DNA of 64,000 nt from Nitrospinota bacterium (GCA_016194325.1 JACQBS010000051.1:7855-71854); one strand, 5' to 3'; shown: positions 1,675 through 49,494, counted from the first letter of the stretch. The notes: a model not told the origin generated them from the sequence alone. A program made the numbers and translations.

Positions 1675-3879
1675 ATGTTTAGAAAATACCCGAATAAAAA
1701 CCTGAATTTAACTACAGAAGCACAGAGGACACGGAGACACAGAGATTTTAAAAGCGGTTTAAACAGTTTAAACGGTTTAATCCGGTTTTTTCCTCAGTGC
1801 CTCAGTGTCTCTGTGGCTTATAACTTCCTGCTCAAAATAAAGCTGATATTACTTATTTTTTTAGTGGCAGTTGATTTTTTTCTTTTAATCCTTATCTATA
1901 CGCCGATTGTAGATGCAACAGGGGGGGCATTTCCATATACGAAACATGGAGGTGTTGCAGGGAATGGAGTGGATCGCTCTACAACAGGGAACTGGCCCCC
2001 TGCATCTGGTGCAGGCACATATCAGAAAGGTGAATGCACTCACTGTCATGAACCACATGCAAGCTTCGGTGGAGACGAACCCTATCCCAACTATACCAAT
2101 CACCCCTCCTTTATGACGCAGGAAGAAGCTCAGGGGCCAGACCCATATCTTCTATTTGCCGATGATAACGCAAATCTATGCTGGACATGCCATGAGACTT
2201 TTCAGTTTACAGGCAAACCATTAGGATGGGGGGCATATGGATTTTATCAGGGGAGGAGTGTCTATCTGTCATCAACACATGGTGACCCATTGAAAAATGC
2301 AAATATGTTATGGCCGGGTATTAGCGGTGCAACGGTTCATCCAAGAAAAGCCCGCCCATCTACACTCAATGGTGTTTCTCAAAAAGGTATATGTCTGAAC
2401 TGTCATACTCCTCATGGTATTCGCGGTAGTGAAGGGAATGCCTATGATACAGATGCAGTCCCTGAGTCAAAACAGCTTACAACGAGCAACCCTTCTGTTA
2501 CTGCGGATTATCTTATTCCCCGTCAGCTTAATGCATGGGAAGAGAAGCTATGTGAAACCTGTCATGACGCAAGTGGGCCTGCAATTAACAACATTCAGAG
2601 TGAAATTGATAAAAGAAGTCTTGGGGGAAGCGGCCACCCTGTGGATGATACAAATCTATCAGGGCGACATGTTGTCAATGAAACTTTTCCTATAACTTCA
2701 AAGCATGTGGAATGCTATGATTGTCATAACCCTCATGTCATTAAATCAAGCAGCAGGGTTGAAGGATTAAGATATGTAGATATAAGTGGTGTTCCAAAGG
2801 ATCCAGCAGCAGGTGATTCACAGCCTTATGTCTATCAAATATGTTTTAAATGCCATGGCGATGGATATGCTAATTTTATTCCTGCGAAAACCCATCCCGG
2901 TCCCGGGCTTAATCCAAATCATTCAAATCATCCACTGCGAACCAGTACTGGAAATCCTGCCTCAGGTAATACTAATGGGAGCAATAAAAGGCTTGAATTT
3001 AACCCTTCAAGCACAAGCTCTCAATCAGATTGCGGATCATACCAGGCATCTGATTGCAGGCCCAGCCCAAGTCAGAATACTGCCTATCATCCAGTAGCCT
3101 CTACTGGTAGGAATACATCGGCTGCTATACAGAGGCAATTACTGGCTGGTCTATCTCCTGACAAGACTATTATGTGCACTGATTGCCATAATTCCGAGGC
3201 AACAGGAAGCATACAGGGACCTGTAACAGAATCCAACTTAAGGGCTACAGACCTTCCATCGGGATATGCCGGAGTAAGCCCTATAGGTCCTCATGGCTCA
3301 CAACCACCTTCTGTAGGCGGTTACCAGACATATCGGATTTTAAGGGCCAATTACAATACGACATTAGGGGGGGCAACTGAGCCATTTACTTCTTACAATC
3401 GTGATAATTTTGCCCTCTGTTTTCTCTGCCATAATGAAGAGGCATTTACAAAACAGTGTGGTGACCCTTATTTTGAGTGTGGTAGCTGGACAGATGGGCC
3501 CAAGACAAACTTCTATAGCACATTATATGATATAAATCTCCATGCAACCCATATAGCCAAAAAACCTGTTTTTGCAACTACTGGAACTTCTACAACCTGT
3601 GCAAACTGTCATTATAATGTTCATTCCAATATAGAGGCTGCCAATACTATGTATAACGACAGCAATGATCCGAACTGGAAGAGACCTCTGGATGGCGGAA
3701 CTCGTCTTATTAATTTTTCTCCAATTGTTGGAGCCAGCTCATGGTGGACCTATAGCAGACCATTCTGGGGGTGCGTTAAAACGACTGGCATATGGAGGAA
3801 GGGGTGTGATTTTAACTGTCATGGCTTCGATATGGAATTATGGTATTCACCCCCTAATATTGCAGACAGCTGTTACTAA
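1675..3879 (+). CDS. Multihaem c-type cytochrome (9 CXXCH + 1 CX3CH), membrane-anchored or secreted
   Basis: Haem motifs: CTHCH, CWTCH, CLNCH, CETCH, CYDCH, CFKCH, CTDCH, CFLCH, CANCH plus CDFNCH, many in a CXXCHxPH context. Hydrophobic segment LILLIFLVAVDFFLLILIY. The C-terminal ~390 aa are paralogous to the C-terminus of 11392..16635. Start uncertain: the ORF opens at TTG 1606 and ATG 1675 was chosen. The N-terminus is read through hairpin element 1715..1816. Confidence 0.8.
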   Translation: MFRKYPNKNLNLTTEAQRTRRHRDFKSGLNSLNGLIRFFPQCLSVSVAYNFLLKIKLILLIFLVAVDFFLLILIYTPIVDATGGAFPYTKHGGVAGNGVDRSTTGNWPPASGAGTYQKGECTHCHEPHASFGGDEPYPNYTNHPSFMTQEEAQGPDPYLLFADDNANLCWTCHETFQFTGKPLGWGAYGFYQGRSVYLSSTHGDPLKNANMLWPGISGATVHPRKARPSTLNGVSQKGICLNCHTPHGIRGSEGNAYDTDAVPESKQLTTSNPSVTADYLIPRQLNAWEEKLCETCHDASGPAINNIQSEIDKRSLGGSGHPVDDTNLSGRHVVNETFPITSKHVECYDCHNPHVIKSSSRVEGLRYVDISGVPKDPAAGDSQPYVYQICFKCHGDGYANFIPAKTHPGPGLNPNHSNHPLRTSTGNPASGNTNGSNKRLEFNPSSTSSQSDCGSYQASDCRPSPSQNTAYHPVASTGRNTSAAIQRQLLAGLSPDKTIMCTDCHNSEATGSIQGPVTESNLRATDLPSGYAGVSPIGPHGSQPPSVGGYQTYRILRANYNTTLGGATEPFTSYNRDNFALCFLCHNEEAFTKQCGDPYFECGSWTDGPKTNFYSTLYDINLHATHIAKKPVFATTGTSTTCANCHYNVHSNIEAANTMYNDSNDPNWKRPLDGGTRLINFSPIVGASSWWTYSRPFWGCVKTTGIWRKGCDFNCHGFDMELWYSPPNIADSCY
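1715..1816 (+). repeat. Tandem-unit hairpin element, CACAGAG/CTCTGTG family with CGGTTTAAA-repeat loop (copy 1)
   Basis: Left arm cagaagcacagaggacacggagacacagag; right arm cctcagtgcctcagtgtctctgtgg, about 21/29 complementary. Loop aaaagcggtttaaacagtttaaacggtttaatccggtt. A near-identical element lies at 17537..17643. Confidence 0.85.
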
Positions 3880-5151: not shown

Positions 5152-5228
5152 AACCACAGGTGAACACAGGTAAACGCTGAAAATAAAAAAAATAAAATAA
5201 CTGTGTTAATCTGTGTTTATCTGTGGTT
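5152..5228 (+). repeat. Decamer-unit hairpin element (AACCACAG-GTGAACACAG / CTGTGTTTAT-CTGTGGTT), empty loop
   Basis: Left arm aaccacaggtgaacacaggtaaac; A-rich loop; right arm ctgtgttaatctgtgtttatctgtggtt. Preceded by the TAGGAAATTATAAAA box (5135..5150). Same family as 10908/11307 and 54092..54172. Confidence 0.85.
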
Positions 5229-5249: not shown

Positions 5250-6752
5250 ATGAGAAATTTTTTTTTAAGATTAGTTCATGATAGTTGTAAGTTGTTGGTT
5301 GTCAGTTGTTGGTTATTTCTCTGTGCCTCTGTGTCTCTGTGTCTATTAGTTTTTTGTTCAATCCCTGCCTATGCGGAAAAGGGCGATGCGGTGGCAGGAA
5401 AAGAGGTTTTTGAGAAAAGATGCAGGCAGTGCCATGGTGATACAGGTGAGGGGAATGGCCGCGTAGCGGACAAGGTATATCCTCCGCCGAGAAATTTCAC
5501 ATGGGGTCTTTTCAAATACAAGACATCCCCTATGGACCAACCTCCAAGAGATGAGGATTTGTTAAGAACGATAAATGATGGATTTGGCGAGGCATCTATG
5601 CCTCCGTGGAGGGACATAATGACTGAGAAGGAAAAGCGGGATGTTATAGCCTATGAAAAGAATTTTTCGGATATTTTTGAGACAGAGAAACCGCCTGAAG
5701 AGATTGATTATGGCGAGGAGATTCTTTACTCAGAACAGAGCGCCATTAAAGGTAAGGAGCTTTTTAAAAAGGCAGGGTGCCCTGAGTGTCATGGTGAAAA
5801 TGGAAAAGGAGATGGTATAAAAAAACTGAAGGATGTATGGGGCACAAGGGAATGGCCCAGAAACCTGACAAAGCCATGGACATACAATGGCGGCAATAAA
5901 CCAAAGAATATATTTGCAAGGATAACGGTAGGCATACCGGGAACACAAATGCCATCATTTGCAGATAAAAATAGTACAAAATATTTTACTGAAGAGGAAC
6001 GTTGGCATATAGTAAATTATGTGAGGTCTCTTGCAGATGAGACGAAGAGGGTTAAGAAAGAAGAAGAGGATAAGCCTTTAAAGGCGAAATATATAAATGG
6101 GGAAATTCCTATGGATGTCCATGCTGATGAATGGAAAGGAGCACCATTTAAGGCAATTAAATTATTCCCGCAGGACCAAACAAAGGAGAAGTTTTTTAAA
6201 CCCACTAATGATGGGATTAAATGGAGGGTCCTCTTTAATGATAAGGAGATCGCATTTTTGTTAGAGTGGGATGATAGGACAAAGAGTGTCCCCGGAGATG
6301 CAGAGGCAGAGAAGCTGAGCGAGGGGGAAGTGTTTGAGGATGCAGTTGCAATTCAGTTTCCCACGGCAATATTGCCCAAGATACCAATAAAAGAACAATT
6401 ACCGTCAATTGAACATGGGGATATGGAGTTTGGTGTAAATATCTGGTATTGGAGTAGTGGAACTACCTTGAGCCCCCAGATGACAAAGGTTAAATATTCG
6501 TATGGTATTAAATCAGAAAGGGTTGAGCCAGAAATTAAAGCAGGTTTAAGCGGGAAAGGTGAATATGCAGGTGGTATATGGAAGGTGATATTAAAAAGAG
6601 GGCTCAAGACTTCAAATCCGAAGGATGACCTCCAGTTTGAAACAGATAAACTTATACCTATAGCATTTGGAAACTGGGATGGCTCAAATGGAGGGAAGGG
6701 AAATAAACATACTGCAACCCCGTGGGATTGGTTAATATTGGAAAAAGGGTAA
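5250..6752 (+). CDS. Di-haem cytochrome c fused to an EB_dh-like (ethylbenzene dehydrogenase / DMSO-reductase type II haem-b subunit-like) domain
   Basis: Two class-I cytochrome c motifs: GKEVFEKRCRQCHGDTGEGNG and GKELFKKAGCPECHGENGKGDG. The C-terminal half (WKGAP...AFLLEWDD...DAVAIQFP...NIWYWSS...WKVILKR...IAFGNWDGSNG) resembles the EB_dh haem-binding domain. The signal peptide ends AYA-EK. The ORF opens at GTG 5223 inside the hairpin; ATG 5250 is preferred. Confidence 0.75.
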   Translation: MRNFFLRLVHDSCKLLVVSCWLFLCASVSLCLLVFCSIPAYAEKGDAVAGKEVFEKRCRQCHGDTGEGNGRVADKVYPPPRNFTWGLFKYKTSPMDQPPRDEDLLRTINDGFGEASMPPWRDIMTEKEKRDVIAYEKNFSDIFETEKPPEEIDYGEEILYSEQSAIKGKELFKKAGCPECHGENGKGDGIKKLKDVWGTREWPRNLTKPWTYNGGNKPKNIFARITVGIPGTQMPSFADKNSTKYFTEEERWHIVNYVRSLADETKRVKKEEEDKPLKAKYINGEIPMDVHADEWKGAPFKAIKLFPQDQTKEKFFKPTNDGIKWRVLFNDKEIAFLLEWDDRTKSVPGDAEAEKLSEGEVFEDAVAIQFPTAILPKIPIKEQLPSIEHGDMEFGVNIWYWSSGTTLSPQMTKVKYSYGIKSERVEPEIKAGLSGKGEYAGGIWKVILKRGLKTSNPKDDLQFETDKLIPIAFGNWDGSNGGKGNKHTATPWDWLILEKG

Positions 6753-6826
6753 TTGTCCCAAAATACTGCTAAACTCACATCTATCCGAAGTAAGTAATAA
6801 ATCCATTTGATTCCCAGGAATTTTGA

Positions 6827-6851
6827 TCCCACACATAATTTATATGTGGGA
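6827..6851. promoter_or_regulatory. 25-bp palindrome TCCCACACATAA-T-TTATATGTGGGA (candidate upstream activator site or terminator stem)
   Basis: Near-perfect inverted repeat (one mismatch) ~215 bp upstream of the sigma-54-like site at 7065 and ~75 nt downstream of stop 6752. It shares the CACATAAT core with the palindrome at 6891..6903. Confidence 0.35.
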
Positions 6852-6890
6852 TTTATCATGTGTTATATTCTACAGGTATTGGGTTAAATC

Positions 6891-6912
6891 GCACATAATG
6901 TGCATTTTTTTT
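6891..6912 (+). terminator. Weak candidate intrinsic terminator
   Basis: gcacataatgtgc forms a short stem (gcaca/tgtgc) followed by atttttttt. The stem is short and AT-rich, so support is low. Confidence 0.3.
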
Positions 6913-7064
6913 CCATTTTCATAGGGTATCTGCAACCTTTTTATGGAACAAAAGACCAATAATAATGTATTAAAATACCGAATAGAGCATAATGCCGCTG
7001 ATTTTTATATAACCCATTATAAATATTAGGTTTATCCTGATTGTAAATCTTTTCTTTATATGAA

Positions 7065-7080
7065 TGGTATAAAAAATGCA
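7065..7080 (+). promoter_or_regulatory. Candidate sigma-54 (-24/-12) promoter
   Basis: TGGTATaaaaaATGCA has the same GG-N10-GC spacing as the site at 1579. It lies 51 nt upstream of ATG 7131, at the end of the largest non-coding gap in the window. Confidence 0.4.
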
Positions 7081-7130
7081 ATATTATAGAAGTGAAATTT
7101 GTAAATATAGTAGAATCTTCTTAATTTTCA

Positions 7131-10100
7131 ATGGACAACGACATGAGTAACCACAAATACACAAGCAAAAAATTAAAGCGAAATAGGGAAACTCTCTATC
7201 TTCCTCCTTTCCCTATTTTTCTTTTTGTGTTTTTGTGGTTAATTATTTTTTCTAATATAGCATTTGCAGAGATTGCTCCAACCACTGTTTATCTATCCGA
7301 TATTAAGAGTGGTCTCTCTGTCCCTGTCCACATAGCTACAGATAAATGGGCGAATATCTATGTAACCGATCCCGGCAGGCAGCAGGTTCATAAATTTAAT
7401 GCCATCGGTGACCTCAAGTTAACGATTACCGGTATTACCGCTCCACTTGGAGTAGCAGTAGATAGTCAGGGGAATATATATATAGGTGATGACAGTAATA
7501 ACAATGTCTCGGTTTTTGATTCTGCCGGTAAGTTTCTTCGCAAATTAGGCTCAGGCAATGATGAGTTTATCATGCCCAATGATATTGTCATAGAGCCATC
7601 TTCAGGACGAATATATGTCACTGATTCAAAGGCAAACATAGTCAAGGTCTACAATCCTGATGGTTCTTTATCCTTTAACATCAGCGGTATTCTTTTTCCA
7701 ACAGGTATTCATATAGATTCTAAGAAGGGGGAGCTTCTTATAGGTGACCTTATAAACTCTCAGGTAAAGGTCTTTGACCTCTCCGGAAATTTTCTAAGAA
7801 GTTTTGGCTCAAGTGGTGTGGGTGCTGGTCTTATTAGCAGTCTGCAGGGGCTGACTGTGGATAAGAGTGGAAGGATATATGTTGTTGATGCCCATAAGGG
7901 ATGGGTTCAGGTCTTTGATTCAGCAGGGAATTACCTTTCCTTTATTGGAAGTGGTAATCTATATACACCGCTGGATGTGATGATAGACCCATACAATAGA
8001 CTTATTGTCTCATCATCTTCTGATGGGAAGCTATCCATTTACGGTATTGATGGTGGTAACCTCCCATCTAATTGGAATGAAAATTACCTGCCTGATACTG
8101 ATGGAGATGGGATGCCTGATGCATGGGAGGAGGCAAACGGACTCAATCCAAATCTTAATGATGCCTCCCTTGACCCTGATAATGACGGCCTTACAAATCT
8201 CAATGAGTATCTATCCGGCTCAGACCCCCACAATCCTGATACTGATGGAGATGGTTTAAAAGACGGTGTTGACCCAAGCCCGGGAATAGCTACTAATAAT
8301 AAACCATCAGCAAATGCCGGTCCTGATATGACATATGACCCGGGTATTATTACTCTTAATGGAAACGGCAGCAGTGACCCAAATTCCCTGTCCCTTAAGT
8401 ATACATGGACAGAGAGCGGGACGAATCCTGCAAATGTAACTCTTTCAGATAATGGGACAGTAACAGCAATTAAACCAACATTTATTGCTACAAAAGCTGG
8501 AGTTTATAAATTTACTCTCAAGGTTGCGAATAACTATTTTGAAAGTAATCCCGATGATGTTCTGATTACAATCAGGAATTTTACTCCAACAGCCTATGCA
8601 GGGTTGGACCAGACTGTCAGTGGTAATACACAGGTCAATATTAGTGGAGCAGGCAGTTTAGATGCAAATGGAGATGCACTAACATATAAGTGGACACAGG
8701 TTTCAGGCACTCAGGTGAGCCTTATTGGAGGAAGCACGAGAGACGCAAATTTTACCCCACAGAGCTCAGGGGTATATATCTTCAGGCTTATCGTGAGTGA
8801 TGGTGTCAATACCAGTGCACCTGATGAGATAAACATAACAGTCAACAGTTCCAATACTGTCCCTGTGGCAGATGCAGGTGTTGACCAGGTCGTTTATTTG
8901 CCTGCTACAGTAACCTTAAACGGTAATAGAAGCAGTGATGGTGATGGAGACCCATTGACATATAGTTGGAATCTCTTATCCGGGCCAAAGGCTGTTACAT
9001 TATCCAATGCCGCTAATAAAAACCCCACATGGACAACTGATACCCCGGGTATCTATACCTTTGCCCTGACTGTCTCCGATGGAAAGGATAATAGCATCTC
9101 TGATAGTGTAAATATTACTGTAAACGGCGCAAATCAGGTTCCTGTTGCAAATGCAGGCACGGATCAGAATGTAATACTCTATTCAACTGTTACCTTAGGG
9201 GGAGGGATGAGCTACGACACGGATAATTCCCCCTCTCCTCTTACATATAAATGGACACAGGTATTTGGAACAACTGTCTCTCTTAACAATTCCACCAGCA
9301 TGACCCCGACATTTGTTCCAATCCACGAAGATGTGCTTAGATTTCAGCTCACCGTTAGTGATGGGCTGAATACCAGTCTATACGATGAGGTTGAGATAAA
9401 GGTAGCAGGCAGTAACATACCCCCTGTGGCTAATGCAGGGAATGACCAAACGGGTATAGTAGGCATATTTATCAAACTTAACGGAACAGGGAGTATGGAT
9501 AAGGATGGGGATACGCTGACCTATCAGTGGACACAGGTGAGAGGTGCATCAGTAATACTCTCCAACATATATTCAAGAGAGCCTACCTTCACACCTTCAC
9601 AACCGGGTATCTATGAATTTATGCTATTAGTGAAAGACAATATTACTTCAAGCTCCGATACAGTTATGATAACAGTTAATAGTCCGCAGAACTCCCTGCC
9701 GCTTGCCAATGCAGGAATAGACAGGATTGTGGAGGTTGATTCTACTGTCCTGCTTAATGGTGGAGGGAGTGATGCAGATGGAGACCCGCTAACCTACAGA
9801 TGGCAATTTGTAAGCGGGCCTGCCTCTATTATTTTATCCAGCACTTCAGCAGCAAATCCAGCTTTTGTGCCAAAGATTATAGGAAGCTACATATTCAGGC
9901 TTACTGTAAATGATACCAAAGGGGATAGCAGTCCTGATGATGTTCAGATTTCAGTGGCTCCTAAAGGTGCCATTGTATTCAATATTAAAAATGGGAAAGA
10001 CAATCTCCTTTCAGCAACCGATTTGACGATATATCCATGGGTTGACCTCTTGATTCCTAACGGGTCTGTAAATGGAAACATGGATATAGCAATTGCAGAA

Positions 10101-10883
10101 GAGAAGAATCCACCCCCAACACGGGTAGGAATAAAGATGATGAATACTGCAGTTGATTTTGCCCCTGATGGCGCAAAATTTAATTCAAAGGTTAAAGTAA
10201 AGATTCCATATACCCTGTCCAGATTATCTGAGGCGGGTATAAGTGACCCTAAGACACTTAAAGTATATACATATAAAAAGGAGACGCAAGTGTGGGAGGA
10301 GATTACCCCTACCAATATCAATGTAGAGAGTCAATATGTTGAATTTGAGACAGACCACTTTTCTATCTATGCACTTGGAAGCCCTGAAAAGACTGGAGGT
10401 TATGGAGATACAGGCGGGTCAGGGGGTTCAGGTGGGTCAAATGGTGGAGGTTCAGGCGGGTCAGGGGGGTCGGGTGGAACAGGTGGAACAGGTGGAACAG
10501 GCGGTGGAAATAGCAATACAGGAGGGCAGATGAGCAGTGGTTCATCTGGTGGCGGGGGCGGTGGTGGTTGTTTCATTGCCACAGCCTCATACGGCTCTTA
10601 TCTCCATCCCCATGTAAAGATATTCAGGGACTTCAGAGACCAGTATCTACTTCCCTATGCTCCGGGGAGATACTTTGTAAGCACCTATTACAAATATAGT
10701 CCTCCTATTGCTGATATAATTGCAGAGCATTGGACACTGAGGGTTTTGACAAGGATTATTCTCTTTCCATTTCTGTTAATTGCCGCATTTTTTGTGAAAG
10801 CTACAGCAATACAAAAGATATTTATTATTATAATAATTGTTGCTATAATGCACAGAAAAAAAATAATGAATTATGAATTTTGA
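7131..10883 (+). CDS. Secreted NHL-repeat beta-propeller / TSP3-like Ca-binding / 7x PKD-like Ig domain protein with Gly-rich linker and CFI-box-like C-terminal anchor
   Basis: - Six NHL-type blades ([75 protein letters not shown], ...).
- [12 protein letters not shown]...[13 protein letters not shown]...[12 protein letters not shown] repeats.
- Seven ~90-aa repeats of the form ANAG.DQ....V.L.G..S.D.DGD.LTY.W.
- A (GGS/GGT)n linker.
- C-terminal [27 protein letters not shown] plus a TM helix. Confidence 0.85.
7149..7240 (+). repeat. Nested hairpin encoding the signal peptide of the NHL/PKD protein
   Basis: Outer arms are aaccacaaatacacaagcaaaaa (7149..7171) and tttttgtgtttttgtggtt (7222..7240). 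Inner arms aaatagggaa (7181..7190) and ttccctattt (7209..7218) are perfectly complementary. The translation is [14 protein letters not shown]...[13 protein letters not shown]. Confidence 0.8.
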
Positions 10884-10907
10884 ATTAAAAGATTAAGGAA
10901 ATAATGA

Positions 10908-11335
10908 AACCACAGATAAACACAGATGAACACAGAAAAAGAATTCCTTTACAAAGAATTAACCGGGGAAATAATAGAGGCATCATATAATGTTCATAAT
11001 AGTCTGGGTTGTGGGTTACTTGAAAAGGTATATGAGAATTCACTTATATGGGAGATAGAATTAATGGGGAGAAAAGTTTCTTCACAAAGAGAGTTCAAAG
11101 TAATTTATCGTAAGAAAGAGGTTGGAATATATTATGCAGATTTAGTTGTAGAGGATAAGGTGATAGTTGAAGTGAAATCGGTAGAAAGGATAGATGATAT
11201 TCATCGTGCACAATTGTTAAACTATCTGAGAATATCTGGCTTAAGGGTTGGGTTGATTATAAACTTTGCCAGATCTAAATTAGAATATGAGAGATTGGTA
11301 GTTTAACCTGTGTTTATCTGTGTTCATCTGTGGTT
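10908..11335 (+). repeat. Inverted decamer-repeat arms bracketing the GxxExxY gene (gene-in-loop hairpin cassette)
   Basis: The left arm aaccacagataaacacagatgaacacaga (10908..10936) contains the ATG. The right arm cctgtgtttatctgtgttcatctgtggtt (11307..11335) starts 1 nt after the stop. The arms are complementary, with two decamer units swapped in order. Confidence 0.85.
10926..11306 (+). CDS. GxxExxY protein (PD-(D/E)XK nuclease superfamily)
   Basis: GLLEKVY is the eponymous G-x-x-E-x-x-Y motif. Length 126 aa, with the typical ...YYADLVVEDKVIVEVKS...HRAQLLNYL... core. Confidence 0.85.
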   Translation: MNTEKEFLYKELTGEIIEASYNVHNSLGCGLLEKVYENSLIWEIELMGRKVSSQREFKVIYRKKEVGIYYADLVVEDKVIVEVKSVERIDDIHRAQLLNYLRISGLRVGLIINFARSKLEYERLVV

Positions 11336-11391
11336 AATGCATAATTAAGGTAATTAGAAAATGGAAATTCTTAAAGGAGGAATACACAAAA

Positions 11392-14300
11392 GTGAAGAAC
11401 CTGTTCAGTAGGGACCAAGGAGAAAAAGTAAAAAGGAAGCCTGTCTGCCCAACAGGTAGAAAGGTATGGTTGGGGGTTACACTTGCACTTATACTTACAC
11501 TTACACTTACACTTTTTAAAGCACAAGGGGCAATTGACCCGCCTCATTATGACACAAGCACGACAAGCCCATTTTATTGTAGCGACTGTCATAAAGAGAG
11601 GACAGAATCAGATGTCCCGGGACTCTGTATGAGCTGCCACAACCCTGCCGGTAGGGCAAAGGCAAAGCCATTTGCCAGAACTGACCAGTCAACAATGGGG
11701 CAGGGAGTGGTTGGAGAGGACACTAAAGGGACCACTCACAGGTTTGATTCTGAAGGCTTGAAATATGTCAAGCTGTGGAAACCAAATAATAGCACGGGAA
11801 AGATAAAGATTGCAGGGGGCTCCATGTATTCAGGTGATTTTAGCACACAAAATGAAATGGAATATGAGTTTGAGATTGTTAACCCAGGGGATGTGGGTGC
11901 GGCAACCTTTAAATACCGTTGCCGCACAAGGAGTAAGCCTCAGCCAACCAGTTCTACCAACCCATTTAATACACCCGTATGGGACCGTGATGCAGACTGG
12001 AGCGGCTGGACATCTGCTTACACTACAGCAGCAAGCGTCTCATTAAACGACTCAATCTGCGGCGGCGATAAAGGTATCTCCCTATCCTTTGAGAATGGTT
12101 CAGGGAGCCCCAACTCCTTTGATGCAGGAACCGGAGGCAGGGTTTATGTAAAACTCCTAAACCAGCCGAGTAATGACAATATGAAATTAAGAGTGATGAA
12201 TAACAAAATCAACTGCTCAGTCTGCCACAATCAGCATTCTATGCAGCTTGACCGCCCCTACCTGAGGGCAGGTAATGTGGGAAATGCACTCTGCAAGCAC
12301 TGCCATGATGACAGGGATAGGAGTCATTATATGCAGGAGATGGGGACTGCTGATGATGGAACTGGGGATAGTTCCAATCAGACCACACTTCAGTTGGTGG
12401 ATATATCAAAGAACTGGACAGTAAACCAGTGGGTTGGAAAGCAAGTCTATTTCCAGAAGAACTTCAGGGGTGTGCAGGCGGCAGTAGATAATGAGGAAAA
12501 AAATCTTACAGGGACTTTGACCTTTACGCAGGGCTCTGCAACAGTAACGGGTGTAGGGACATTATTTTCAACAGAGATAAGCTCCCTGCAATTTATAAGG
12601 CTCTCATCATCCTCCAAATGGTATCCTGTAACATCTATAGGAACAAATACCTCATTAACCCTTTCAATACCATTTGAGGAAGCCACTGTTACGGGTAATG
12701 CCATGACTTCATCCTTCGCTGGTTTTTATCGTAAGATTACCTCCAATACTTCAAACACACTTGTTCTGGATGGCGCCTTAAATGCCAAAATTGATAATGG
12801 TCTCAGATACAGGATTGTAGATACTAATAATTACGGCAGTCATCCGGTTGGTATTAAATACTCACAGATGGATTTTGATACCCGCTTCAATTCTGATATA
12901 AAACCCCTGCCGCTTGATGACAATGGAACACCATCGGATACAAGTGATGACACTGTTCAGTGCATGACCTGCCATAGTCCGCATTTTACACATTCAGTAG
13001 GAACAGAAGGTGGTGCTGCAACATCAGGGACCACCACATCCCTTACAGATACAACAAAGAGTTGGACAGCAAATTCATTGGTAGGATACGAATTAAGGAT
13101 AAGAAATGAATGGACATCGGGGACATCCAATCAGAATCCGAACTGGCGAAAGAGGAGGTTTATCACCTCAAATACAGCGAATAAAGTTGAATGGCTGGAC
13201 CCACTCACCATCAGGAGTAACCCAAATGACAGTTCTGTGATGATTGACAGCCCTCCATCTGCGGGTGATGTTTATGAGATTGTTAATACCAGCGGGACCA
13301 ACCTGACCAACGGAATCGGTGATGGGTATATCTTAAGAAAGCCGAATGGTTATTCAAATGGGTATATACGGAAATATCAAAATATTGATGATGATAAAGT
13401 AATCTGTAAGACCTGCCATAAATATAAAAACCATTTTGGCGATGAAACTGCCGGTGGGTATGCCAGAAGCTGCATGGATTGTCATACACCGCATAATACA
13501 ACAAACAGATTCCTTTTGAGAGAGGTAATCAATAACCGTGAAGTCCGTATAAGACCGGGTGATAACTATGTAAACTCCTCCCGCACAGGCGTCTGTCAGG
13601 TCTGTCATACACAGACAAAACACTGGAGAAACGATGGGTCGGAGCCTCAGGCTCATTATGCCGAAGGGTGTCCTCAGTGCCACCAGCATGATAGTGAGGA
13701 GAGGAGCTGGATTTATATATGTAAAACATGTCATGGATACCCGCCTGTCCCAAAGGGAACTATTGTGGATAAAAAGGGTAATATACACACCAACATCAAT
13801 GATTCTATTTGTACCAACACCAGTGACCCTAATTATGCCGGTCCTTGTGCTGAGTATAATACCTTCAATCAAAATATACCTCATTCATCCTACCGTATTG
13901 AGGATTACGATGGCGGAGGCGGCGCACATCTTGTCCATGTGGTTGGGGCATTACAACAATTTGAATGTAAAATCTGCCACGGACATATGGGTTATGGGAA
14001 TGAGCATGGCGGCAGTGTGGGCAGAAAAACCCCGGACAGAAACAATATTACCTTTAATTTCCAGCTTGATTACAGTTTCAACGAGCGATTAGAGACAAAA
14101 CTTGGGTATCAGACAATAGACCCGCCTGTCTATCCGAAAATGATGGGTGTAGAGGTGGGGACATCGGCTACTTATATGAATCGTGCCGATGCCACAAATG
14201 GTTATGGACCCGGGAAAAAGCATATTGGTTCTGGTGCTACAAGTAACGGTGGGAACAACGAAGATGCTACTACACCGAGTATACTTGGCAGGGCGGTTAC

Positions 14301-16639: not shown

Positions 16640-16761
16640 AGCAATGAGCAATGAGTGCTAAGCGATGAGTAAAAACTTATTGCTAATCACACATTATGAA
16701 ATTATGATTCGCAATTTATTATTTACATTGCTCATTGCTCATTGCTTATCACTCATTGCTT
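16640..16761 (+). repeat. Octamer-unit hairpin (GCAATGAG/CTCATTGC) with the gene start codon in its loop
   Basis: The left arm agcaatgagcaatgagtgctaagcgatgagt pairs with the 3' part of the right arm (ctcattgcttatcactcattgct) in about 21/23 positions. The loop contains gaaattATGATTCGCAATTT (ATG 16704). The right arm encodes LLIAHCLSLIAYA. Confidence 0.8.
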
Positions 16762-17531
16762 ATGCAAGTGAGATGGTTCTTATACCGGAGGGTAAGTTTA
16801 TAATGGGAAGTCGTGGAGACGGCGGAGATGAAGGTGTCTTAGGGGTGGATGTTGGGGTTGACCAGATTCCGCAAAGGGAGGTCTTCTTGAAGGCTTTTTA
16901 TATGGACAAATATGAGGTTACTGTCCAAGAGTATAAGGAGTTTGCAAAGGCAACAGGTCATCCCCTTCCCGGTCTTTTGACAGGTGAAGACAACCCCCTA
17001 ACCCCCTTTATTAAGGGGGAATTTAATGTGAAGGAGTGGGCAGTTAAATATCCTCCCATAGAGGATGATTTTCCAATCAATGATGTAACTTATATGGATG
17101 CGGAGGCTTATTGTTCATGGGCAGGTAAAAGGCTGCCTACTGAAGAGGAATGGGAGAAGGCTGCGAGGGGGAAAGATGGGAGGTTATACCCATGGGGAAA
17201 TGATAAAACAATTGGAAAGGCGAATACAATAGAGTGGTCAAAGGAAAAGGTGGCAGCGGTTGCTGTCGGGAGTTTTCCGACAGATATAAGCCCTTATGGA
17301 GTTTACGATATGGCTGGAAATATCATGGAATGGACATCTTCATGGTATGAGGCATATCCGGGGAGCAAACTAAAACGAGCACAATTTGGAAAAAAGTATA
17401 AGGTGATGAAAGGCGGGGCATGGATGGGACCAATGACACCCTTTGCACGGGGAGCACATCGGTATGCAGCAGGTGTTACAGAGAGAAACCATCATCCCCA
17501 TTTTGGATTTAGATGTGCAAAGGATATATAA
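16704..17531 (+). CDS. Secreted FGE-sulfatase-fold (SUMF1/formylglycine-generating-enzyme family) protein, catalytic Cys pair absent
   Basis: MVLIPEGKFIMGS...YMDKYEVTVQEYKEF...VTYMDAEAYCSWAGKRLPTEEEWEKAARG.DGRLYPWGN...YGVYDMAGNIMEWT...GFRCAKD. No GGS(Y/F)LCH.SYC motif. The ORF opens at ATG 16665 within the repeat arm. ATG 16704 (MIRNLL...) is preferred by analogy with 17660 and 19169. Confidence 0.8.
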   Translation: MIRNLLFTLLIAHCLSLIAYASEMVLIPEGKFIMGSRGDGGDEGVLGVDVGVDQIPQREVFLKAFYMDKYEVTVQEYKEFAKATGHPLPGLLTGEDNPLTPFIKGEFNVKEWAVKYPPIEDDFPINDVTYMDAEAYCSWAGKRLPTEEEWEKAARGKDGRLYPWGNDKTIGKANTIEWSKEKVAAVAVGSFPTDISPYGVYDMAGNIMEWTSSWYEAYPGSKLKRAQFGKKYKVMKGGAWMGPMTPFARGAHRYAAGVTERNHHPHFGFRCAKDI

Positions 17532-17536
17532 AATTA

Positions 17537-17643
17537 GCCACGGAGACACGGAGGCACAGAGTTTTTAAAAGCGGTTTACACGGTTTGAACAGTTTAAACG
17601 GTTTAATCTGGTTTATATCTCTGTGTCTCTGTGACTCTGTGGC
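17537..17643 (+). repeat. Tandem-unit hairpin element, CACAGAG/CTCTGTG family with CGGTTTAAA-repeat loop (copy 2)
   Basis: Left arm gccacggagacacggaggcacagag; right arm tctctgtgtctctgtgactctgtggc, about 21/25 complementary. The loop aaaagcggtttacacggtttgaacagtttaaacggtttaatctggtt is homologous to the loop of 1715..1816. Confidence 0.85.
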
Positions 17644-17659
17644 AAGAAAGGGTGAAATT

Positions 17660-18697
17660 ATGATTCGTAAATTATTACTTAAAACAGTGTCAGTGAATAG
17701 TGTCAGTGACAGGAAAAAAATACTAACATTGATACTTACACTTACACTTACACTGACACTGTCACTTGCATCAGCAAGTGATATGCTCCTCATCCCTGCC
17801 GGAGAATTTATTATGGGGAGCGGGGCTGTTCAGGGAACAGACCCTTACACTGACACTCACACTTTTAAAGAGGGGATTGACTATGGAGTGGATGAGATTC
17901 CACAGAGGAAGGTTTTTGTCAAAGACTTTTATATTGACAGATTTGAAGTAACAAATGCCGAATACAAAGAATATCTTAAATATCTCATTAAGAACAGGGT
18001 GAGGCTTCCATTTTATGAGGATATAGGTATCCCTATCCCGGAGGATTGGAGATATCTAAGAAGCAGTGTCAAAGAGTCAGAGAGTCAAAGTGTCAAAGTA
18101 AAAAATACTGATACTGACACTGACACTTATACTTTTAAAGAAGGCATGGAATATCATCCTGTAAGTGATGTGGATTGGTATATGGCAAATAGTTATTGTC
18201 AATGGAAAGGCAAGAGATTACCTACAGAAAATGAGTGGGAGAAGGCTGCAAGGGGGACAGACGGCAGGCTCTATCCATGGGGGAATGAAGAGAATAAAGG
18301 ATATGCGAATACCAGAAAAAGCAGTGTCAAAGAGTCAGAGAGTCAAAGTGTCAAAGTAAAAAATACTGACACTGACACTAACACTGACACTGGCACTGTG
18401 GCGGCAGGCTTTTTTAAAAAAGATGTTAGTCCTTATGGTGTCCATGATATGGGGGGGAATGTGGCTGAATGGACATCATCTTTATATCGTCCATATCCGG
18501 GAAGTCCTGTGGCAGAAAGAGAGGCATTTAAGAGAGAGTTCTATGTTGTCAGGGGCGGGTCCTATTTAATTAATGCCCATGAATCGGCAAGGGCATCGGC
18601 GAGATACTATATGCTCCCGACCCGTATGCCAAGGGCAGCAGATGCCTGGCATGGTGACGGGATGGTGGGGTTCAGATGTGCAAAAGATAAAGAATAG
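17660..18697 (+). CDS. Secreted FGE-sulfatase-fold protein carrying two in-frame hairpin-repeat insertions
   Basis: The leader is MIRKLLLKTVSVNSVSDRKKILTLILTLTLTLTLSLASA. FGE-family motifs: LLIPAGEFIMGS, RFEVTNAEYKEY, WYMANSYCQWKGKRLPTENEWEKAARGTDGRLYPWGN, YGVHDMGGNVAEWT, GFRCAKD. GGSYLINAHESARASARYY replaces the FGE motif GGS.LCH.SYC..YR, so both Cys are lost. The listed ORF start at 17513 is read-through of element 17537..17643. Confidence 0.8.
   Translation: MIRKLLLKTVSVNSVSDRKKILTLILTLTLTLTLSLASASDMLLIPAGEFIMGSGAVQGTDPYTDTHTFKEGIDYGVDEIPQRKVFVKDFYIDRFEVTNAEYKEYLKYLIKNRVRLPFYEDIGIPIPEDWRYLRSSVKESESQSVKVKNTDTDTDTYTFKEGMEYHPVSDVDWYMANSYCQWKGKRLPTENEWEKAARGTDGRLYPWGNEENKGYANTRKSSVKESESQSVKVKNTDTDTNTDTGTVAAGFFKKDVSPYGVHDMGGNVAEWTSSLYRPYPGSPVAEREAFKREFYVVRGGSYLINAHESARASARYYMLPTRMPRAADAWHGDGMVGFRCAKDKE
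18065..18136 (+). repeat. In-frame hairpin insertion 1 in FGE-like CDS (AGTCAAAG arm / A-loop / CTGACAC arm)
   Basis: Sequence: agtgtcaaagagtcagagagtcaaagtgtcaaag-taaaaaat-actgatactgacactgacacttatactttt. It is 72 nt (24 codons) and encodes SVKESESQSVKVKNTDTDTDTYTF. Confidence 0.85.
18323..18398 (+). repeat. In-frame hairpin insertion 2 in FGE-like CDS
   Basis: The left arm and loop (agcagtgtcaaagagtcagagagtcaaagtgtcaaagtaaaaaatactga) are identical to insertion 1, which lies 258 nt upstream. The right arm is actgacactgacactaacactgacactggcactg. It encodes SVKESESQSVKVKNTDTDTNTDTGT. Confidence 0.85.
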
Positions 18698-19160
18698 TAT
18701 CAAAGTGTCAGAGTATCAGAGTGTCAGAGTTTTTTACTTTGACACTATATAAAAGTGTCAGAGGTAATATGGAAGAGAAAAAGGGTTACAAAAAACTGAG
18801 GGTATGGGAAAAGGCACATCAACTTGCAATGGAAATTTATAATACTACTAAAATATTTCCAAAAGAAGAGTTGTATGGATTAACTTCACAGATTAGAAGA
18901 GCAGCGTTTTCAGTTCCTTTAAATATAGTAGAGGGACATGCAAGTATTAGCAAGAAAGAATTTTTGAATTTTCTTAATATGGCAAATAGGTCCCTTGTTG
19001 AGACAGAATATCTGTTAGAGATAGTGAGAGAATTAAGCTTTTTAAATGAACCCGAGTATCAAAGGTTAGAGAAAATACGCAGTGAAGTTGCAGTTATATT
19101 AAACGCTTTTCGAAAAAGTATCAAACTTTGATACTTTGACACTCTGACACTTTGACACTT
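18696..19160 (+). repeat. Inverted octamer-repeat arms bracketing the four-helix-bundle gene (gene-in-loop hairpin cassette)
   Basis: The left arm is agtatcaaagtgtcagagtatcagagtgtcagag (18696..18729), followed by the mini-hairpin ctttgacact/aagtgtcagag (18737..18762). The right arm ctttgatactttgacactctgacactttgacactt (19126..19160) overlaps the stop codon. Confidence 0.85.
18769..19131 (+). CDS. Four-helix-bundle protein (23S rRNA intervening-sequence protein family; Avd-like fold)
   Basis: MEEKKGYKKLRVWEKAHQLAMEIYNTTKIFPKEELYGLTSQIRRAAFSVPLNIVEGHASISKKEFLNFLNMANRSLVETEYLLEI matches the family pattern (L.VW.KA....iY..t..FPk.E.ygL.sQirRAa.S...NI.EG). The ORF opens at GTG 18721 in the repeat; ATG 18769 after GAGGT is preferred. 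Confidence 0.85.
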   Translation: MEEKKGYKKLRVWEKAHQLAMEIYNTTKIFPKEELYGLTSQIRRAAFSVPLNIVEGHASISKKEFLNFLNMANRSLVETEYLLEIVRELSFLNEPEYQRLEKIRSEVAVILNAFRKSIKL

Positions 19161-19168
19161 TAAAACTT

Positions 19169-22100
19169 ATGATTCGCAAATTGCTGCAAATATTACTATT
19201 TACACTGACACTGACACTGTCACTTTCCCCTGTGTTTGCTACGATCTCTACTGTTGACTCACAGGGTGGTGCGTATAGCTCTATTAAGCTCCAATCTGAT
19301 GGTAAGCCTGCGGTTGCCTACTTTGACCATAAAACCGGGGAGTTGAGGTATTCTTACTGGACAGCGAATGGGACAGTGAATCAATGGATTCGCACTGTCG
19401 TGGAAGAAAAAGGTGTAACAGGGTATGTCTCCCTATGGTTAGGCAGCGGAAATAAGCCCTACATAAGCTACTATCACAACATAAGTAAGAATAACAGCAC
19501 AGGCTCAGATATAAACGGTAAATACGGCAACCACATGGTAGGTGCACTCAAATATGCCTATTGTTCTACTACAACCTGTCTTACACCTGAGGACTGGACA
19601 AAGGTAACTGTGGCAGAGATTGGTCAATCACAAAACGGGCATACTGGAGGGTTTACATCCCTTGCCTTTGATTCGTCAGGAAATCCGAGGATAGCCTATT
19701 ATGACTTTTCTCATAAGATAGATGCCAATGACATAAAGAAAGGTGCATTAAAACTTGCCTATTGTGACAGTAATTGCAGCAGTAGTAGTAGCTGGTCAAT
19801 AAGCACAGTTGATACTGATGGCGGCAGGTCTGCCTCTATGGTTATAAATTCCAGCAATAAGGTGATGTTCAGCTATGATGCTGATGAAGTGCAGACAGTA
19901 AGGTATGCGGAAGGCTCACCCCCATTTTCATCATGGACTAAAGCGGATATAGATACAATTGTAAACACGAGTAATTTATTCAGGGATACATCAATAGCAA
20001 TTCATCCAACCACGGGGAAGCCGAGGCTTATATATCAATATCAAGGGCAGGCTGACTATGGAACAGGCGGTACTTGTAGTTCTTGTACCCGGTCTGTCAG
20101 CGATCGATATTATGGTTACAATACTCCCGGGATTATAACCCGTCGTGATGCATACTATGCCTATTGTGATGCTGCTGATTGCACAGTTTCTACAAACTGG
20201 ACAAAAAATGTTGTTTTAGAGAGTAATGAGAGATATTTGAGGGGATATACATCTTCAATTAAGGTTGGGAGTGACGGTCCAAAGATTGCGTATCATTACT
20301 GGGGGCATAGGGCAAATAGTGCTTATTCTATTGGGCTTACTCAGAACCTCCAATATGTTAACTGTACTACCGCGAATTGTTCAAGTAAGAACATCTCCAC
20401 TATTGATTCAACAGAGAACACAGGGCTTTATTCTTCCATTGCACTTGATTCCTCTAACAATCCTTTGATTTCTTATTACGATTATGATTCAAACCAATTA
20501 AAGCTTTACCATCCGACAAACTCTTATACTGATGCTGGTATTACAGCAGATACCCGTGCAAGCGATACATCCAATGGAGGCACAGGACTACAGAGTGGGG
20601 ATAGCTTCAAAATCCTCTTTTCAGGTGCTACTAATGGAGCAGCATGCTCTATTACTACTGCTAATATAGACAGTATCCTCAAACTCTCAAATGGTCATTC
20701 CTGGGTATGCTCGGGGAGCAGTATAACAGCTACATGGAGTAACACCTACAATACAAACGATACACTAACAATCACGGTTACTTCCGGCACAGGTGGCTGT
20801 GTGCCTACAGTGGAGGTTGGGGATAGGGTATCTCTGAATGGAACCTGTATATTAGATGGGAGTGGTAATCCTATTATTTTACAGACAGAGATAAGGGGTA
20901 GCACCGGAGTCAAGGTTCCAACCGGCGCTGTAGCATATTGGAAGATGGATGAAGGTGCGAAGCTTACTGCCTGGGACAGTGTAGGTCCACATAATGCATC
21001 TTTGAACAATGGTGTTACATGGACAACAGGTCTTAGTGGCTCTGGACTCTCTCTTGATGGCAGTGATGACTATCTGATTGTCCCCGGAAACCCTGTTGAT
21101 TTAGATATTAAAGGGGGGAAGATTACCATTGAGGCATGGCTCAAGCCGAATAATTTATTTAGCACAAATTATACTGTCCTCAGTAAAGAGAATAGTTATG
21201 CAATGACATCAAATGGTCAGTGTGCCATAGAAACATCCGATACAGGAACAACATGGGCATGGTATGGGGGAGCGAGTATGAGCAGATTGCAAAGAAATTA
21301 TTCAGGAAATAAGGATATATGGAGACAGGTTGTCTGCACATACGATGGAACAACACAGAAGGTTTATATAGATGGCATCTTTGATGGAAGTCTATCACGG
21401 ACAGGAACTGTAAGCGCCTCAAATTATCCTTTTGTAATGGGGAGGAGGGAACTGTCAACATGGCCTACGAACAGAGGATATGATAGTAATGGTTGTCCTG
21501 GTACCGTCAGCGGTTGCAGTGGTGAAAACTACTGGGGGACAAATTATTACAATGGGAAAATGGATGAGGTTGTTATATATAATACTGCACTTTCACAGAC
21601 TGAAATTTTAAATCGTTTCAGCTCATTACCTGCCCAGTTTGAGAGGGCAGATGCAAATGATACATCTATGAGTGGCTATGGGCTTCAGGCAGGGGATACT
21701 ATAGCAATAAGGTTCACGAATGAGACAAATGCCCCTACAATAAATGCAGGAAATATAAATACAGTCCTCTCAGTTACTGGAAAGACATGGAAGGATGGGA
21801 GTGGAAATATAGGTAGTGCAGTATGGAGTCAAACAAGATTCACTAATGATACACTATTAATCACATTAAGCACAGCAACCAGTGCCCCCACAGTTGCAAC
21901 AGGAGATATAATAACCCTATCGGGAGGAATAATAAAAGAGAAAACCGGGATCAACTCTATTACAGGCTCCACTAAAATCAGGGGAAGTTATGATTTGAAT
22001 GGTGCTGTTGCATACTGGAATCTTGACGAGAGCAGCGGGGATCCATCAGACAGTGTCGGGCAGTATAATACCGGGACACTTGCTTGTGTTGGTACGGGTT

Positions 22101-39990: not shown

Positions 39991-40073
39991 AGTGCAGAGT
40001 ATCAAAGTATCAAAGAGTCAAAGTATCATAGATTAAAGACTTTGACACTCTGACACTTTGACACTTTGACTCT
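39991..40073 (+). repeat. Intergenic octamer-unit hairpin (AGTCAAAG/CTTTGACA) between TolB-like genes 1 and 2
   Basis: Left arm agtgcagagtatcaaagtatcaaagagtcaaagtatca; 9-nt loop; right arm gactttgacactctgacactttgacactttgactct. It starts 6 nt after stop 39985 and ends 16 nt before ATG 40089. No T-tract. Confidence 0.85.
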
Positions 40074-44403: not shown

Positions 44404-44460
44404 TGAAAGTGTAAGTGAAAGTGTAAGTGAAAAGAGTTAACTTACACTTACACTTGCACT
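44402..44460 (+). repeat. Intergenic hexamer/heptamer hairpin (AGTGTAAGTGAAAG / CTTACACTTACA) between TolB-like genes 3 and 4
   Basis: Sequence: agtgaaagtgtaagtgaaagtgtaagtgaaaag-agttaa-cttacacttacacttgcact. It overlaps stop codon 44401..44403 and ends 13 nt before ATG 44474. Confidence 0.85.
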
Positions 44461-44473
44461 ATAAGGAGGAGCC

Positions 44474-48627: not shown

Positions 48628-49491
48628 ATGAGAAGGGTTGCACTCATACTTACACTCACACTTACACTTATTTCAGATAGTGTAAACGCTAAGGAATGCA
48701 CACTGCTGGAGCCTGAGGCACTGAAAAGGGCTATAGAAAATAAATCTATATATGAGATGATTATATTTGATGTTCGTCCGCGGTATACTCCTGACTCGAA
48801 GCGTAGGTTTGATCTTGAGACTAATGTGAAGCGTATCCCGTCGAGTCTCTGGGCGCCTCTTGAAAAGATTGAACTGGACCTGGTTGGTAAGGTGGAGGAA
48901 CTTATTGATAGGAATGTTATTCTGGTGGGGGAGAATACAGAGTCCGCAGAAAGTGTATGCAGGTTTATGATGAAAAAAGATTATGGAATTCGTAATATAT
49001 ATGTCTTAAAAGGGGGTATGGAGAAATGGGATGGTCCTATTAAAGATGATATTACAAAAGTTGAATGTGCGATGATTACCTCCAGAGAGTTGATGAATAT
49101 GATGAAATCTGGAAAAAATGTTGAGATAGTTGACAAACGTTTAGCAGATGAATATCATGAGGGACATATACCAGGTGCAGTATTACGACCTGGCGAAATG
49201 AGACAGCCTTCACTAAAATATCTTATAACAAAACGGGAATTGCGTATAAAAAGGGCGCGGGAGAATACTATCGTCGTCTATGTGTATGATAATGAAGTTC
49301 AAACCATGCTGGATTGTAAGTATGAAAAATATTTCTCACATCCTGCATGGTATCCTGATGGTAATAATGATAATAAGAAAGCAAAAAAAGATGTTTATGT
49401 GCTTAGAGGCGGAATGAAGGTATGGGAAGGAGAAGTAAAAAAAGATTATCTGGAAATATTGAAAAAGAGAGTTAAGGAGAAACTGAAATGA
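48628..49491 (+). CDS. Secreted tandem rhodanese-homology-domain protein lacking the active-site Cys
   Basis: The signal peptide is MRRVALILTLTLTLISDSVNA. There are two rhodanese-like units: IIFDVRP...ILVGENTESAES...VLKGGMEKW and VEIVDKRLADEYHEGHIPGAV...VVYVYDNEVQT...VLRGGMKVW. The positions of the catalytic C-x5-R loop carry no Cys. The ORF-track start at 48526 translates repeat elements. Confidence 0.7.
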   Translation: MRRVALILTLTLTLISDSVNAKECTLLEPEALKRAIENKSIYEMIIFDVRPRYTPDSKRRFDLETNVKRIPSSLWAPLEKIELDLVGKVEELIDRNVILVGENTESAESVCRFMMKKDYGIRNIYVLKGGMEKWDGPIKDDITKVECAMITSRELMNMMKSGKNVEIVDKRLADEYHEGHIPGAVLRPGEMRQPSLKYLITKRELRIKRARENTIVVYVYDNEVQTMLDCKYEKYFSHPAWYPDGNNDNKKAKKDVYVLRGGMKVWEGEVKKDYLEILKKRVKEKLK

Positions 49492-49494
49492 ATT

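Follow-up and report, generated by a model that had tools for sequence, protein, structure and literature searches.

The window analysed here is a stretch of 64,000 nucleotides (nt) from a Nitrospinota bacterium (GCA_016194325.1, JACQBS010000051.1:7855-71854), whose large open reading frames (ORFs) all lie on the + strand. Between a gene for a surface protein of 1250 amino acids (aa) and a gene for a 1747-aa multihaem cytochrome (the Pfam domains of these neighbours were seen on their orthologues in locus L001) it carries an element of 428 nt, positions 10908-11335, in which an imperfect inverted repeat of 28 base pairs (bp) surrounds one ORF, the only GxxExxY gene of the window. Counted with its leader, the unit is about 450 nt long and consists of a 21-nt leader, a 28-bp stem built of decamers and a minimal nuclease gene in the loop:

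10887-10907, + strand: leader, 21 nt; homology to copies at other sites begins at 10887.
10908-10935, + strand: left arm, tandem decamers AACCACAGAT AAACACAGAT GAACACAG, with the start codon inside.
10926-11306, + strand: GxxExxY / PD-(D/E)XK nuclease gene, 126 aa.
11308-11335, + strand: right arm, CTGTGTTTATCTGTGTTCATCTGTGGTT; on this side the DNA shared with other copies stops sharply at the outer end of the arm.

The arms, 28 nt each, are 93% complementary and are separated by 372 nt. The units of the left arm follow the consensus ACACAGATRA, with 10-nt units at 10908-10917 and 10918-10927. An earlier note made from the sequence had described arms that abut the ORF, an ATG within the left arm and a right arm starting 1 nt past the stop. 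The coordinates agree with this: the ORF begins with the ATG at 10926, inside the left arm, the TAA stop is at 11304-11306 and the paired right arm begins at 11308. The 29th pair of that description, A10936 opposite C11307, is a mismatch, and the stem is 28 bp long. At the outer ends the inverted-repeat family extends 3 nt beyond the first description, with TG(A/G) preceding and (C/T)CA following AACCAC...GTGGTT.

In the Nitrospinae copies an outer ATG (10904 in the window) and a Shine-Dalgarno-like AAGGAAA are found in the leader, just outside the stem. The outer ATG opens a short upstream ORF, which crosses the left arm in a frame other than that of the GxxExxY gene. It is a run of five A's at 10937-10941 that puts this ATG, with its good Shine-Dalgarno sequence, out of frame; homologues with 133-aa products (MKPQIN..., MEPQVN...) read it in frame, implying one base fewer in the stretch from this ATG to the gene. 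The N-terminally extended database entries (MKPQINTDEHR..., MEPQVNTDKHR...) are translated arm sequence. Promoter and terminator consensus scans at the element of the window gave scores at or below chance. The idea that the arms are a universal three-frame stop module was rejected, as the left arm of the window has stops in only two frames and GC-rich arm families have none.

A protein identical to the one encoded here is on record from a Nitrospinae/Nitrospinota MAG (metagenome-assembled genome; P0001). The encoded protein matched TIGR04256 with 138.6 bits (cut-off 35, E = 1.1e-40) over profile positions 1-116 of 116, and PF13366 (PDDEXK_3) with 131.1 bits (cut-off 22, E = 3.3e-38). The residues of G30-x-x-E33-x-x-Y36, D72, E82-x-K84 and Q96-xxx-Y100, of which E33, D72, E82, K84, Q96 and Y100 are of the catalytic type, were invariant in 40 homologues. 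The AlphaFold model (predicted local distance difference test score, pLDDT, 79.6) has the H-H-E-E-E-H-E-E topology of the PD-(D/E)XK fold. Its nearest solved folds, Cas4 SSO0001, lambda exonuclease, LHK-Exo, ACE1, MGME1 and AddAB, belong to the RecB-like clade, with weak template modelling (TM) scores of about 0.5. The protein is apparently an intact RecB/Cas4-like PD-(D/E)XK nuclease. A sequence search of the PDB found no relative even at E = 1, the PADLOC defence models gave only faint Cas4 similarity (E 5e-4 to 1e-2), and the Pfam and NCBIfam matches of the ORF were to PD-(D/E)XK families only, with no HUH Y1 transposase among them. The family is large, comprising 15,751 clusters at 50% identity (E <= 1e-3), and includes two-domain forms. 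In a library of representatives (P0121-P0270) about a quarter of the best-scoring relatives were 250-295 aa long, with two tandem GxxExxY modules.

A 17-nt arm pattern, with at most two mismatches allowed, had 10 matches in the window as against 0.03 expected from shuffles, and all 10 belonged to just three hairpins, the one that carries the gene and the gene-less ones at 5152-5228 and 54092-54172. When positions 10890-11350 were folded as RNA, the terminal stem closed the whole gene in the minimum-free-energy structure (z = -4.46). For a covariation analysis the arms of 16 elements were aligned from their ends; many of these elements are orthologues from a single Nitrospirota site. Of the alignment cells 91.6% paired, compared with 30-41% when the partners were slid; pairs 7-50 and 17-40 alternated between A-U and G-C; and the covariation score was 0.198, as opposed to 0.099 for shuffles, with none of 500 shuffles scoring as high. 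In 13 Nitrospirota species the gene occupied the same orthologous position, downstream of a type II secretion operon, with flanks 64-87% identical, and there the arms differed between species, with compensated changes. These observations show that the pairing of the hairpin is under selection and is kept by compensatory change. Between the window and its syntenic orthologue L001 the flanks were 78-87% and the gene 85% identical, and 28 of 28 arm positions were the same, including the two mismatched pairs. A low-complexity coincidence or an assembly error could be considered as the origin of the inverted repeat, as the data come from metagenome-assembled genomes (MAGs), and nothing else speaks for it. 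The excess of arm matches, the occurrence of the same architecture in dozens of independent assemblies and in many phyla, and the compensatory changes that maintain the stem led us to reject this explanation as extremely improbable.

The generality of the hairpin packaging was surveyed in 80 loci fetched from GTDB species representatives of many phyla, which encode relatives 38-86% identical; 78 of the loci were testable. In 50 of the 78 a flanking inverted repeat scored at least 14 and above all 100 shuffles. Altogether 60 were above all shuffles, whereas in the direct-orientation control only 8 reached that score. Bracketing was found for 19 of the 24 proteins at least 60% identical to that of the window and for 23 of the 39 that were less than 45% identical. 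The arm units were lineage-specific (for example CACAGAT, CACGGAT, CGCAGAT, CGCGAAT/G, CACGAAA, CACGAAT, GGCCGAAAA and CACAGAA), and the plan was constant across lineages: an AACC(A/G)C-like outer end followed by two to four units of about 10 nt, with 16-40 nt from the start of the left arm to residue 1 and 0-20 nt from the stop to the start of the right arm. Of the five distinct genes of the rRNA intervening sequence (IVS) protein family, PF05635, present in the fetched loci, four were bracketed by hairpins of other units. The layout is thus common to most members of the GxxExxY family across phyla and to the rRNA-IVS protein family. The earlier note had named other GxxExxY copies of the genome without flanking inverted repeats, along with unrelated termini of the empty hairpins, as what would refute it; most of the GxxExxY genes sampled in other genomes proved to be bracketed, so that on this point the proposal was not refuted. 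Strict co-divergence of arm and protein was rejected, since an identical arm was found with proteins 43-100% identical.

A separate observation concerns L005 (Elusimicrobiota MAG), where the final ~35 nt of the gene, together with the right arm, are present in at least four tandem copies at positions 6381-6720. The copies come after an intact element and are interrupted by an assembly gap.

Comparison of the window with L221, in which the element occupies the same junction, showed that the block 10887-11338 was 96.9% identical (438 of 452 positions, no gaps), with differences at 9 of 127 third codon positions, whereas the upstream flank was 79.4% and the multihaem gene 79.3% identical. Protein P0003, 98% identical to that of the window, was found on contigs that carry the element at other junctions. 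The junctions and the loci in which the element occupies them are the following:

Junction A: 1250-aa gene / element / multihaem gene; window, L001, L221 and L226.
Junction B: FGE2 / element / giant gene; L225 and L222 (in L222 the right arm is one unit shorter).
Junction C: FGE1 / element / FGE2; L223 and L227 (mid-contig, on a contig of 35.8 kb).
Further junction: FGE2 / element / multihaem gene; L224.

The ORF copies at junctions A, B and C differed by 0-4 nt. The window itself has at junction C a gene-less hairpin (17537-17643) and at junction B a PF05635 element. The gene-less hairpin at junction C, an orthologous 'empty' site in the window, belongs to another repeat family. Proteins 74-84% identical to that of the window, with the same arms, were present in MAGs labelled Sumerlaeota, Elusimicrobiota, Planctomycetales and WOR-3, and an Omnitrophota copy with a degenerate left arm encoded a protein 78% identical. 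The right edge of the shared DNA coincides exactly with the end of the arm. The left edge is 21 nt outside the arm and reads AAAAGATTAAGGAAATAATGA, which resembles the junction at the 3' end of the FGE gene in L224, GCAAAAGATTAAAGGAAAGAATGA; it seems that the window copy carried along a scrap of an earlier site. In this discordance of position and identity the gene-containing unit shows signs of being mobile.

Several observations weigh against a mobile element moved by its own nuclease. The phylum labels depend on the binning of the MAGs, and the short contigs L222, L223 and L224 are possibly chimeric across the 430-nt repeat. The fossil-like left edge outside the arm suggests recombination rather than precise transposition. 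In most syntenic pairs the element diverged in step with its flanks, and it is fixed at one site through the 13 Nitrospirota species; from this it follows that movement is rare. The enrichment of same-family arms in the 15-20 kb surrounding a bracketed gene was only about 2.4-fold, and in L022, L012 and L007 genes persist with a lost or degenerate arm. The stem mismatches had no strand bias (47 of the G.U type on the sense strand and 48 of the A.C type), so that the data favour neither RNA nor DNA as the selected structure. Finally, the non-enzymatic PF05635 family has the same packaging, which means that bracketing alone does not mark a mobilising enzyme.

The divergence in step with the flanks and the long retention of a site, also between the window and L001, would be expected if the long tandem-unit hairpins, which nearly every gene junction of this genome carries, were punctuation of the host genome. 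In the manner of REP/BIME or Correia sequences they would serve as terminators, as stabilisers or as places of RNase III processing, with the GxxExxY gene as an ordinary, vertically inherited and immobile resident. This explanation gains support from at least 15 further tandem-unit hairpins of several sequence families, located in the window at gene junctions or in signal-peptide coding DNA, and from the strong co-orientation of the GxxExxY gene with its neighbours (both co-directional in 41 of 68 loci, both opposite in 3 of 68). It is also in line with the T-runs, which stood no more than 14 nt from the stem on 45 of the 122 hairpin sides, as against 9 of 122 control windows; because of this excess many gene-less hairpins look like bidirectional terminators with unusually long stems. 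A resident gene would, however, not be expected to differ so much less than its flanks and with such sharp edges, to occur in near-identical copies at three junctions, to recur as 74-84% identical proteins with the identical arm design in MAGs of four other phyla, or to have its start codon and stop abutting the arms alike in unrelated contexts. We regard host punctuation with a resident gene as unlikely. On our own reading, inheritance of the gene-carrying unit over long periods has been mostly vertical, with occasional duplication, replacement and transfer between genomes.

The gene-less members of the element's family in the window are the following:

5152-5228, no strand assigned: gene-less hairpin with an A-rich loop of 25-29 nt, between + strand genes; T-runs on both sides; z = -9.3.
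54092-54172, no strand assigned: gene-less hairpin with 31-nt arms and a 19-nt loop; T-runs on both sides; z = -8.2.
7143-7246, + strand: degenerate hairpin, arms 7143-7175 and 7214-7246, 79% complementary; z = -6.6.

The first two share the AACCAC...GTGGTT termini with the gene-carrying unit, as the earlier note had claimed. The third, described there as a coding-leader version, does exist, but it is a degenerate hairpin, as the low complementarity of its arms indicates. It codes within the N-terminal signal-peptide region of ORF 7131-10883, and in L001 the corresponding position of the orthologous ORF is taken by a hairpin from a different unit family. The gene-less stems are about 30 bp long with loops of 10-70 nt, which is outside the usual form of terminators, and a simple terminator scanner does not call them.

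When one 20-nt arm was used to scan metagenomes and viral contigs, at least 133 loci were obtained. They included at least about 62 short hairpins (60-250 nt) with AACCAC...GTGGTT ends, at least 7 hairpins enclosing a GxxExxY gene, which encode proteins only 43-60% identical to that of the window, at least 50 solo arms that lack a partner within 1 kb and at least 18 arms at contig ends. The arm sequence occurred in 13 IMG/VR contigs, mostly as solo arms, and a peptide-pattern search of IMG/VR found no close relative of the GxxExxY protein. Comparison of 60 gene-less loops with six gene-carrying interiors yielded only chance matches of 11-16 nt, and the loops were unrelated to one another. The loops thus hold no gene remnant, and the view that the gene-less hairpins are deletion derivatives of the gene-carrying unit, the miniature derivatives of the earlier note, had to be abandoned. 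Target-site duplications, whose presence the same note had suggested checking, were not above chance at 61 elements, direct repeats of 2-5 nt in the flanks being no commoner than in permutations.

Loops of this kind are what would be found if arm-only hairpins came first and served as vacant targets in a homing process. The nuclease would cut the loop or a cruciform, and repair from an occupied copy would install the gene, the arms of about 28 bp providing the homology. PD-(D/E)XK homing endonucleases exist, an example being I-Ssp6803I. The absence of target duplications, the coincidence of the right edge of the shared DNA with the arm end and the lower divergence of the element than of its flanks, as with homing endonuclease genes, are all consistent with homing. 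So is the finding that the same 20-nt arm brackets the proteins 43-60% identical while closer proteins carry CACGGAT arms, which also means that arms do not simply co-diverge with the gene. On the other hand, the vacant hairpin at junction C of the window is of a different unit family than the element of L227 at that junction, the shared DNA starts on its left side 21 nt before the arm, and the same layout is found in PF05635 elements, which encode no nuclease. Taking these together, we find a homing origin improbable.

Two further features of the window resemble the element in form and differ from it in their repeat units:

18696-19159, + strand: sister element with AGTGTCA(A/G)AG units; arms 18696-18740 and 19115-19159 (45 nt).
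17537-17643, no strand assigned: gene-less hairpin of a third family with GCCACGGAGACACGGAGGCACAGAG units, between two FGE-sulfatase genes (junction C).

The sister element lies about 7 kb from the GxxExxY element. It has the same packaging, and its gene (18769-19131) encodes a 120-aa four-helix-bundle protein matching PF05635 (23S_rRNA_IVP, E = 2.3e-36). In four of the loci examined, L007, L020, L065 and the window, GxxExxY and PF05635 genes were no more than about 10 kb apart; this proximity could reflect either a functional link or a common preference for the same type of site.

Other long tandem-unit hairpins of the window are located at 35695-35828, 39995-40068, 43550-43617, 44400-44582, 49491-49568, 60529-60628 and 61984-62052. 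Their units include CACGAAT, AGAGTCAAAG, GGACAGGAT, GTGAAAGTGTAA and AGAAGTCAG, and nearly all of them stand between + strand genes, so that the genome looks 'punctuated' by such hairpins. Tandem-unit hairpins or pyrimidine-rich arms were also seen in signal-peptide coding DNA (7143-7246, 16640-16763, 17684-17762, 42165-42240, 11480-11510 and 19203-19226); in the signal-peptide hairpins the purine-rich arm codes for the charged N-region and the other arm for the hydrophobic core. Several secreted-protein genes of the operon share a 5' module, GAAATT ATG ATT CG(C/T) AA (MIRK/N...), which is followed by the hairpin-encoded signal peptide and was found at 16704, 17660 and 19169 of the window, at 3433 of L227 and at about 515 of L225. 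This shared start module suggests that the 5' ends of these genes have been shuffled or homogenised.

In the FGE-sulfatase ORF 17513-18697 an in-frame module AGTGTCAAAG...ACTGACACT, encoding SSVKESESQSVKVKNTDTDT, occurs twice, at 18065-18133 and 18323-18398. The two copies fold moderately as RNA (z = -2.2 and -4.0) and recall the Rickettsia palindromic elements inside genes. A palindromic motif, AAACGGTTTAAACCGTTT, is present in tandem or overlapping copies in hairpin loops and intergenic spacers of related Nitrospinae genomes (window 1750-1789 and 17585-17606, L001 1743-1790, L227 4455-4480). In L012 (Nitrospiria MAG), hairpins at 5250-7100 that are made of 7-nt units (AATCCGC / GCGGATT) are located between genes for type II secretion pseudopilins and are apparently translated in frame within prepilin leader peptides (MTNCGLWIADCELRKADLNPKSEIRNPQSKGFTLLE...).

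Our preferred reading, to which we give an even chance of being right, is that the element is a mobile hairpin cassette of the IVS type, placed between the genes of an operon, whose RecB/Cas4-like nuclease would have a role like that of the RAYT transposases. The co-orientation of the gene with its neighbours also speaks for this reading. The statement of the earlier note that no transposase is involved was premature, as the apparently intact nuclease is the obvious candidate for the mobilising enzyme. By analogy with known systems its role may be RAYT-like or homing-like. The element, which has no recognisable promoter of its own, would be read within the host transcript. RNase III might then cut the 28-bp stem of double-stranded RNA, as it does in rRNA intervening sequences; a stem of this length fits the known substrate of RNase III. 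Such cutting would free a small mRNA for the gene itself and spare the neighbouring genes any harm from the insert. On DNA, the nuclease could act on the arms, in the form of a hairpin or cruciform, so that the element is copied or maintained, comparable to the action of RAYT transposases on REP and REPIN sequences. Arm-only hairpins would in that case be non-autonomous relatives, many of them put to use as terminators.

A wider proposal is that GxxExxY proteins are the mobilising nucleases of an undescribed prokaryotic 'foldback' class, that the rRNA intervening sequences are the subset that landed in rRNA, and that the elements seed operons with processing and termination hairpins and, where they are read in frame, could supply signal-peptide or leader coding sequence. 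We put it forward tentatively, as rather doubtful in this full form. In the literature searched we found no description of GxxExxY hairpin packaging and no paper on the GxxExxY / PDDEXK_3 family. If most members are packaged in conserved hairpins alongside the rRNA-IVS protein family, this would offer a first concrete and testable handle on the function of both families. The intervening sequences of rRNA would then be just one of the places where a broader class of hairpin cassettes has landed, and the class would be a nuclease-based counterpart to the long-lived intragenomic replicators of the REPIN-RAYT type. In practical terms, such hairpins lead to wrongly annotated gene starts and unusual N-terminal extensions (MKPQINTDEHR...), and they can break or mis-join metagenome assemblies.

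Among known systems, the eukaryotic Foldback transposons have long terminal inverted repeats composed of short tandem subrepeats, and there are many arms-only copies and few with a coding middle. The resemblance is one of form only, as those transposons are eukaryotic, much larger and encode unrelated proteins. Free-standing homing endonuclease genes are like the element in that a small nuclease gene has diverged much less than the DNA around it and occurs sporadically across distant taxa; unlike them, the element was seen with no intron, intein or defined vacant allele, and a conserved hairpin encloses the gene.

Correia elements and bacterial miniature inverted-repeat transposable elements (PMC2649163, PMC10969869, PMC2229807) are similar in being short intergenic inverted repeats with no transposase of their own, which are possible terminators and can enter coding DNA, and their transcripts form RNase III substrates. 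Correia elements differ in having a TA target duplication and a conserved core, whereas here there is no duplication, the loops are unrelated and a gene-carrying form exists.

The likeness to the REPIN-RAYT system (PMC3116915, PMC3337134, bioRxiv 10.1101/2021.07.10.451892) is closer. In both, the two sides of a gene carry a repeat in inverted orientation, further copies of which are scattered through the genome in gene-less hairpins and as singlets, and both have compensatory changes, no target duplications, long vertical persistence and poorly conserved spacers. The differences are that the gene encodes a RecB/Cas4-like PD-(D/E)XK nuclease and not an HUH Y1 (IS200/IS605-like) transposase, that the arm is a run of direct decamers and not a small palindrome, so that only both arms together form the hairpin, and that copy numbers here are low, with clear signs of gene duplication and horizontal spread in contrast to the typically single-copy RAYTs.

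As regards the 23S rRNA intervening sequences, Rfam matched no rRNA or other family in the whole window, nor around the element at a relaxed threshold. A location inside rRNA was rejected, as the conserved 23S motif is absent from 220 loci and the flanks are protein-coding. Defining features of both rRNA intervening sequences and REPIN-RAYT were looked for and not found in the element, which is consequently a member of neither. It differs from the intervening sequences in lying between protein-coding genes, in having arms of tandem decamers and in encoding a PD-(D/E)XK nuclease (PF13366) in place of the PF05635 four-helix bundle, and cutting by RNase III, established for the intervening sequences, is presumed for the stem of the element. 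The likeness claimed by the earlier note is nevertheless borne out. The Coxiella IVS is 428-444 nt long, with a 28-bp stem that has one mismatch and a bulge, an ORF in the loop and RNase III cutting in mid-stem (PMC4990558). The S23p/PF05635-bearing intervening sequences of Coxiella and Leptospira (PMC4990558) and the element alike are about 430 nt long and have a terminal stem of about 28 bp with one or two defects and one small ORF in the loop. They also have in common vertical inheritance after horizontal acquisition and a place within a host transcript, which for the element is presumed. The 428 nt and the 28-bp stem of the element thus match the Coxiella IVS, and a hairpin carrying the gene of the IVS protein, PF05635, lies in the same window.

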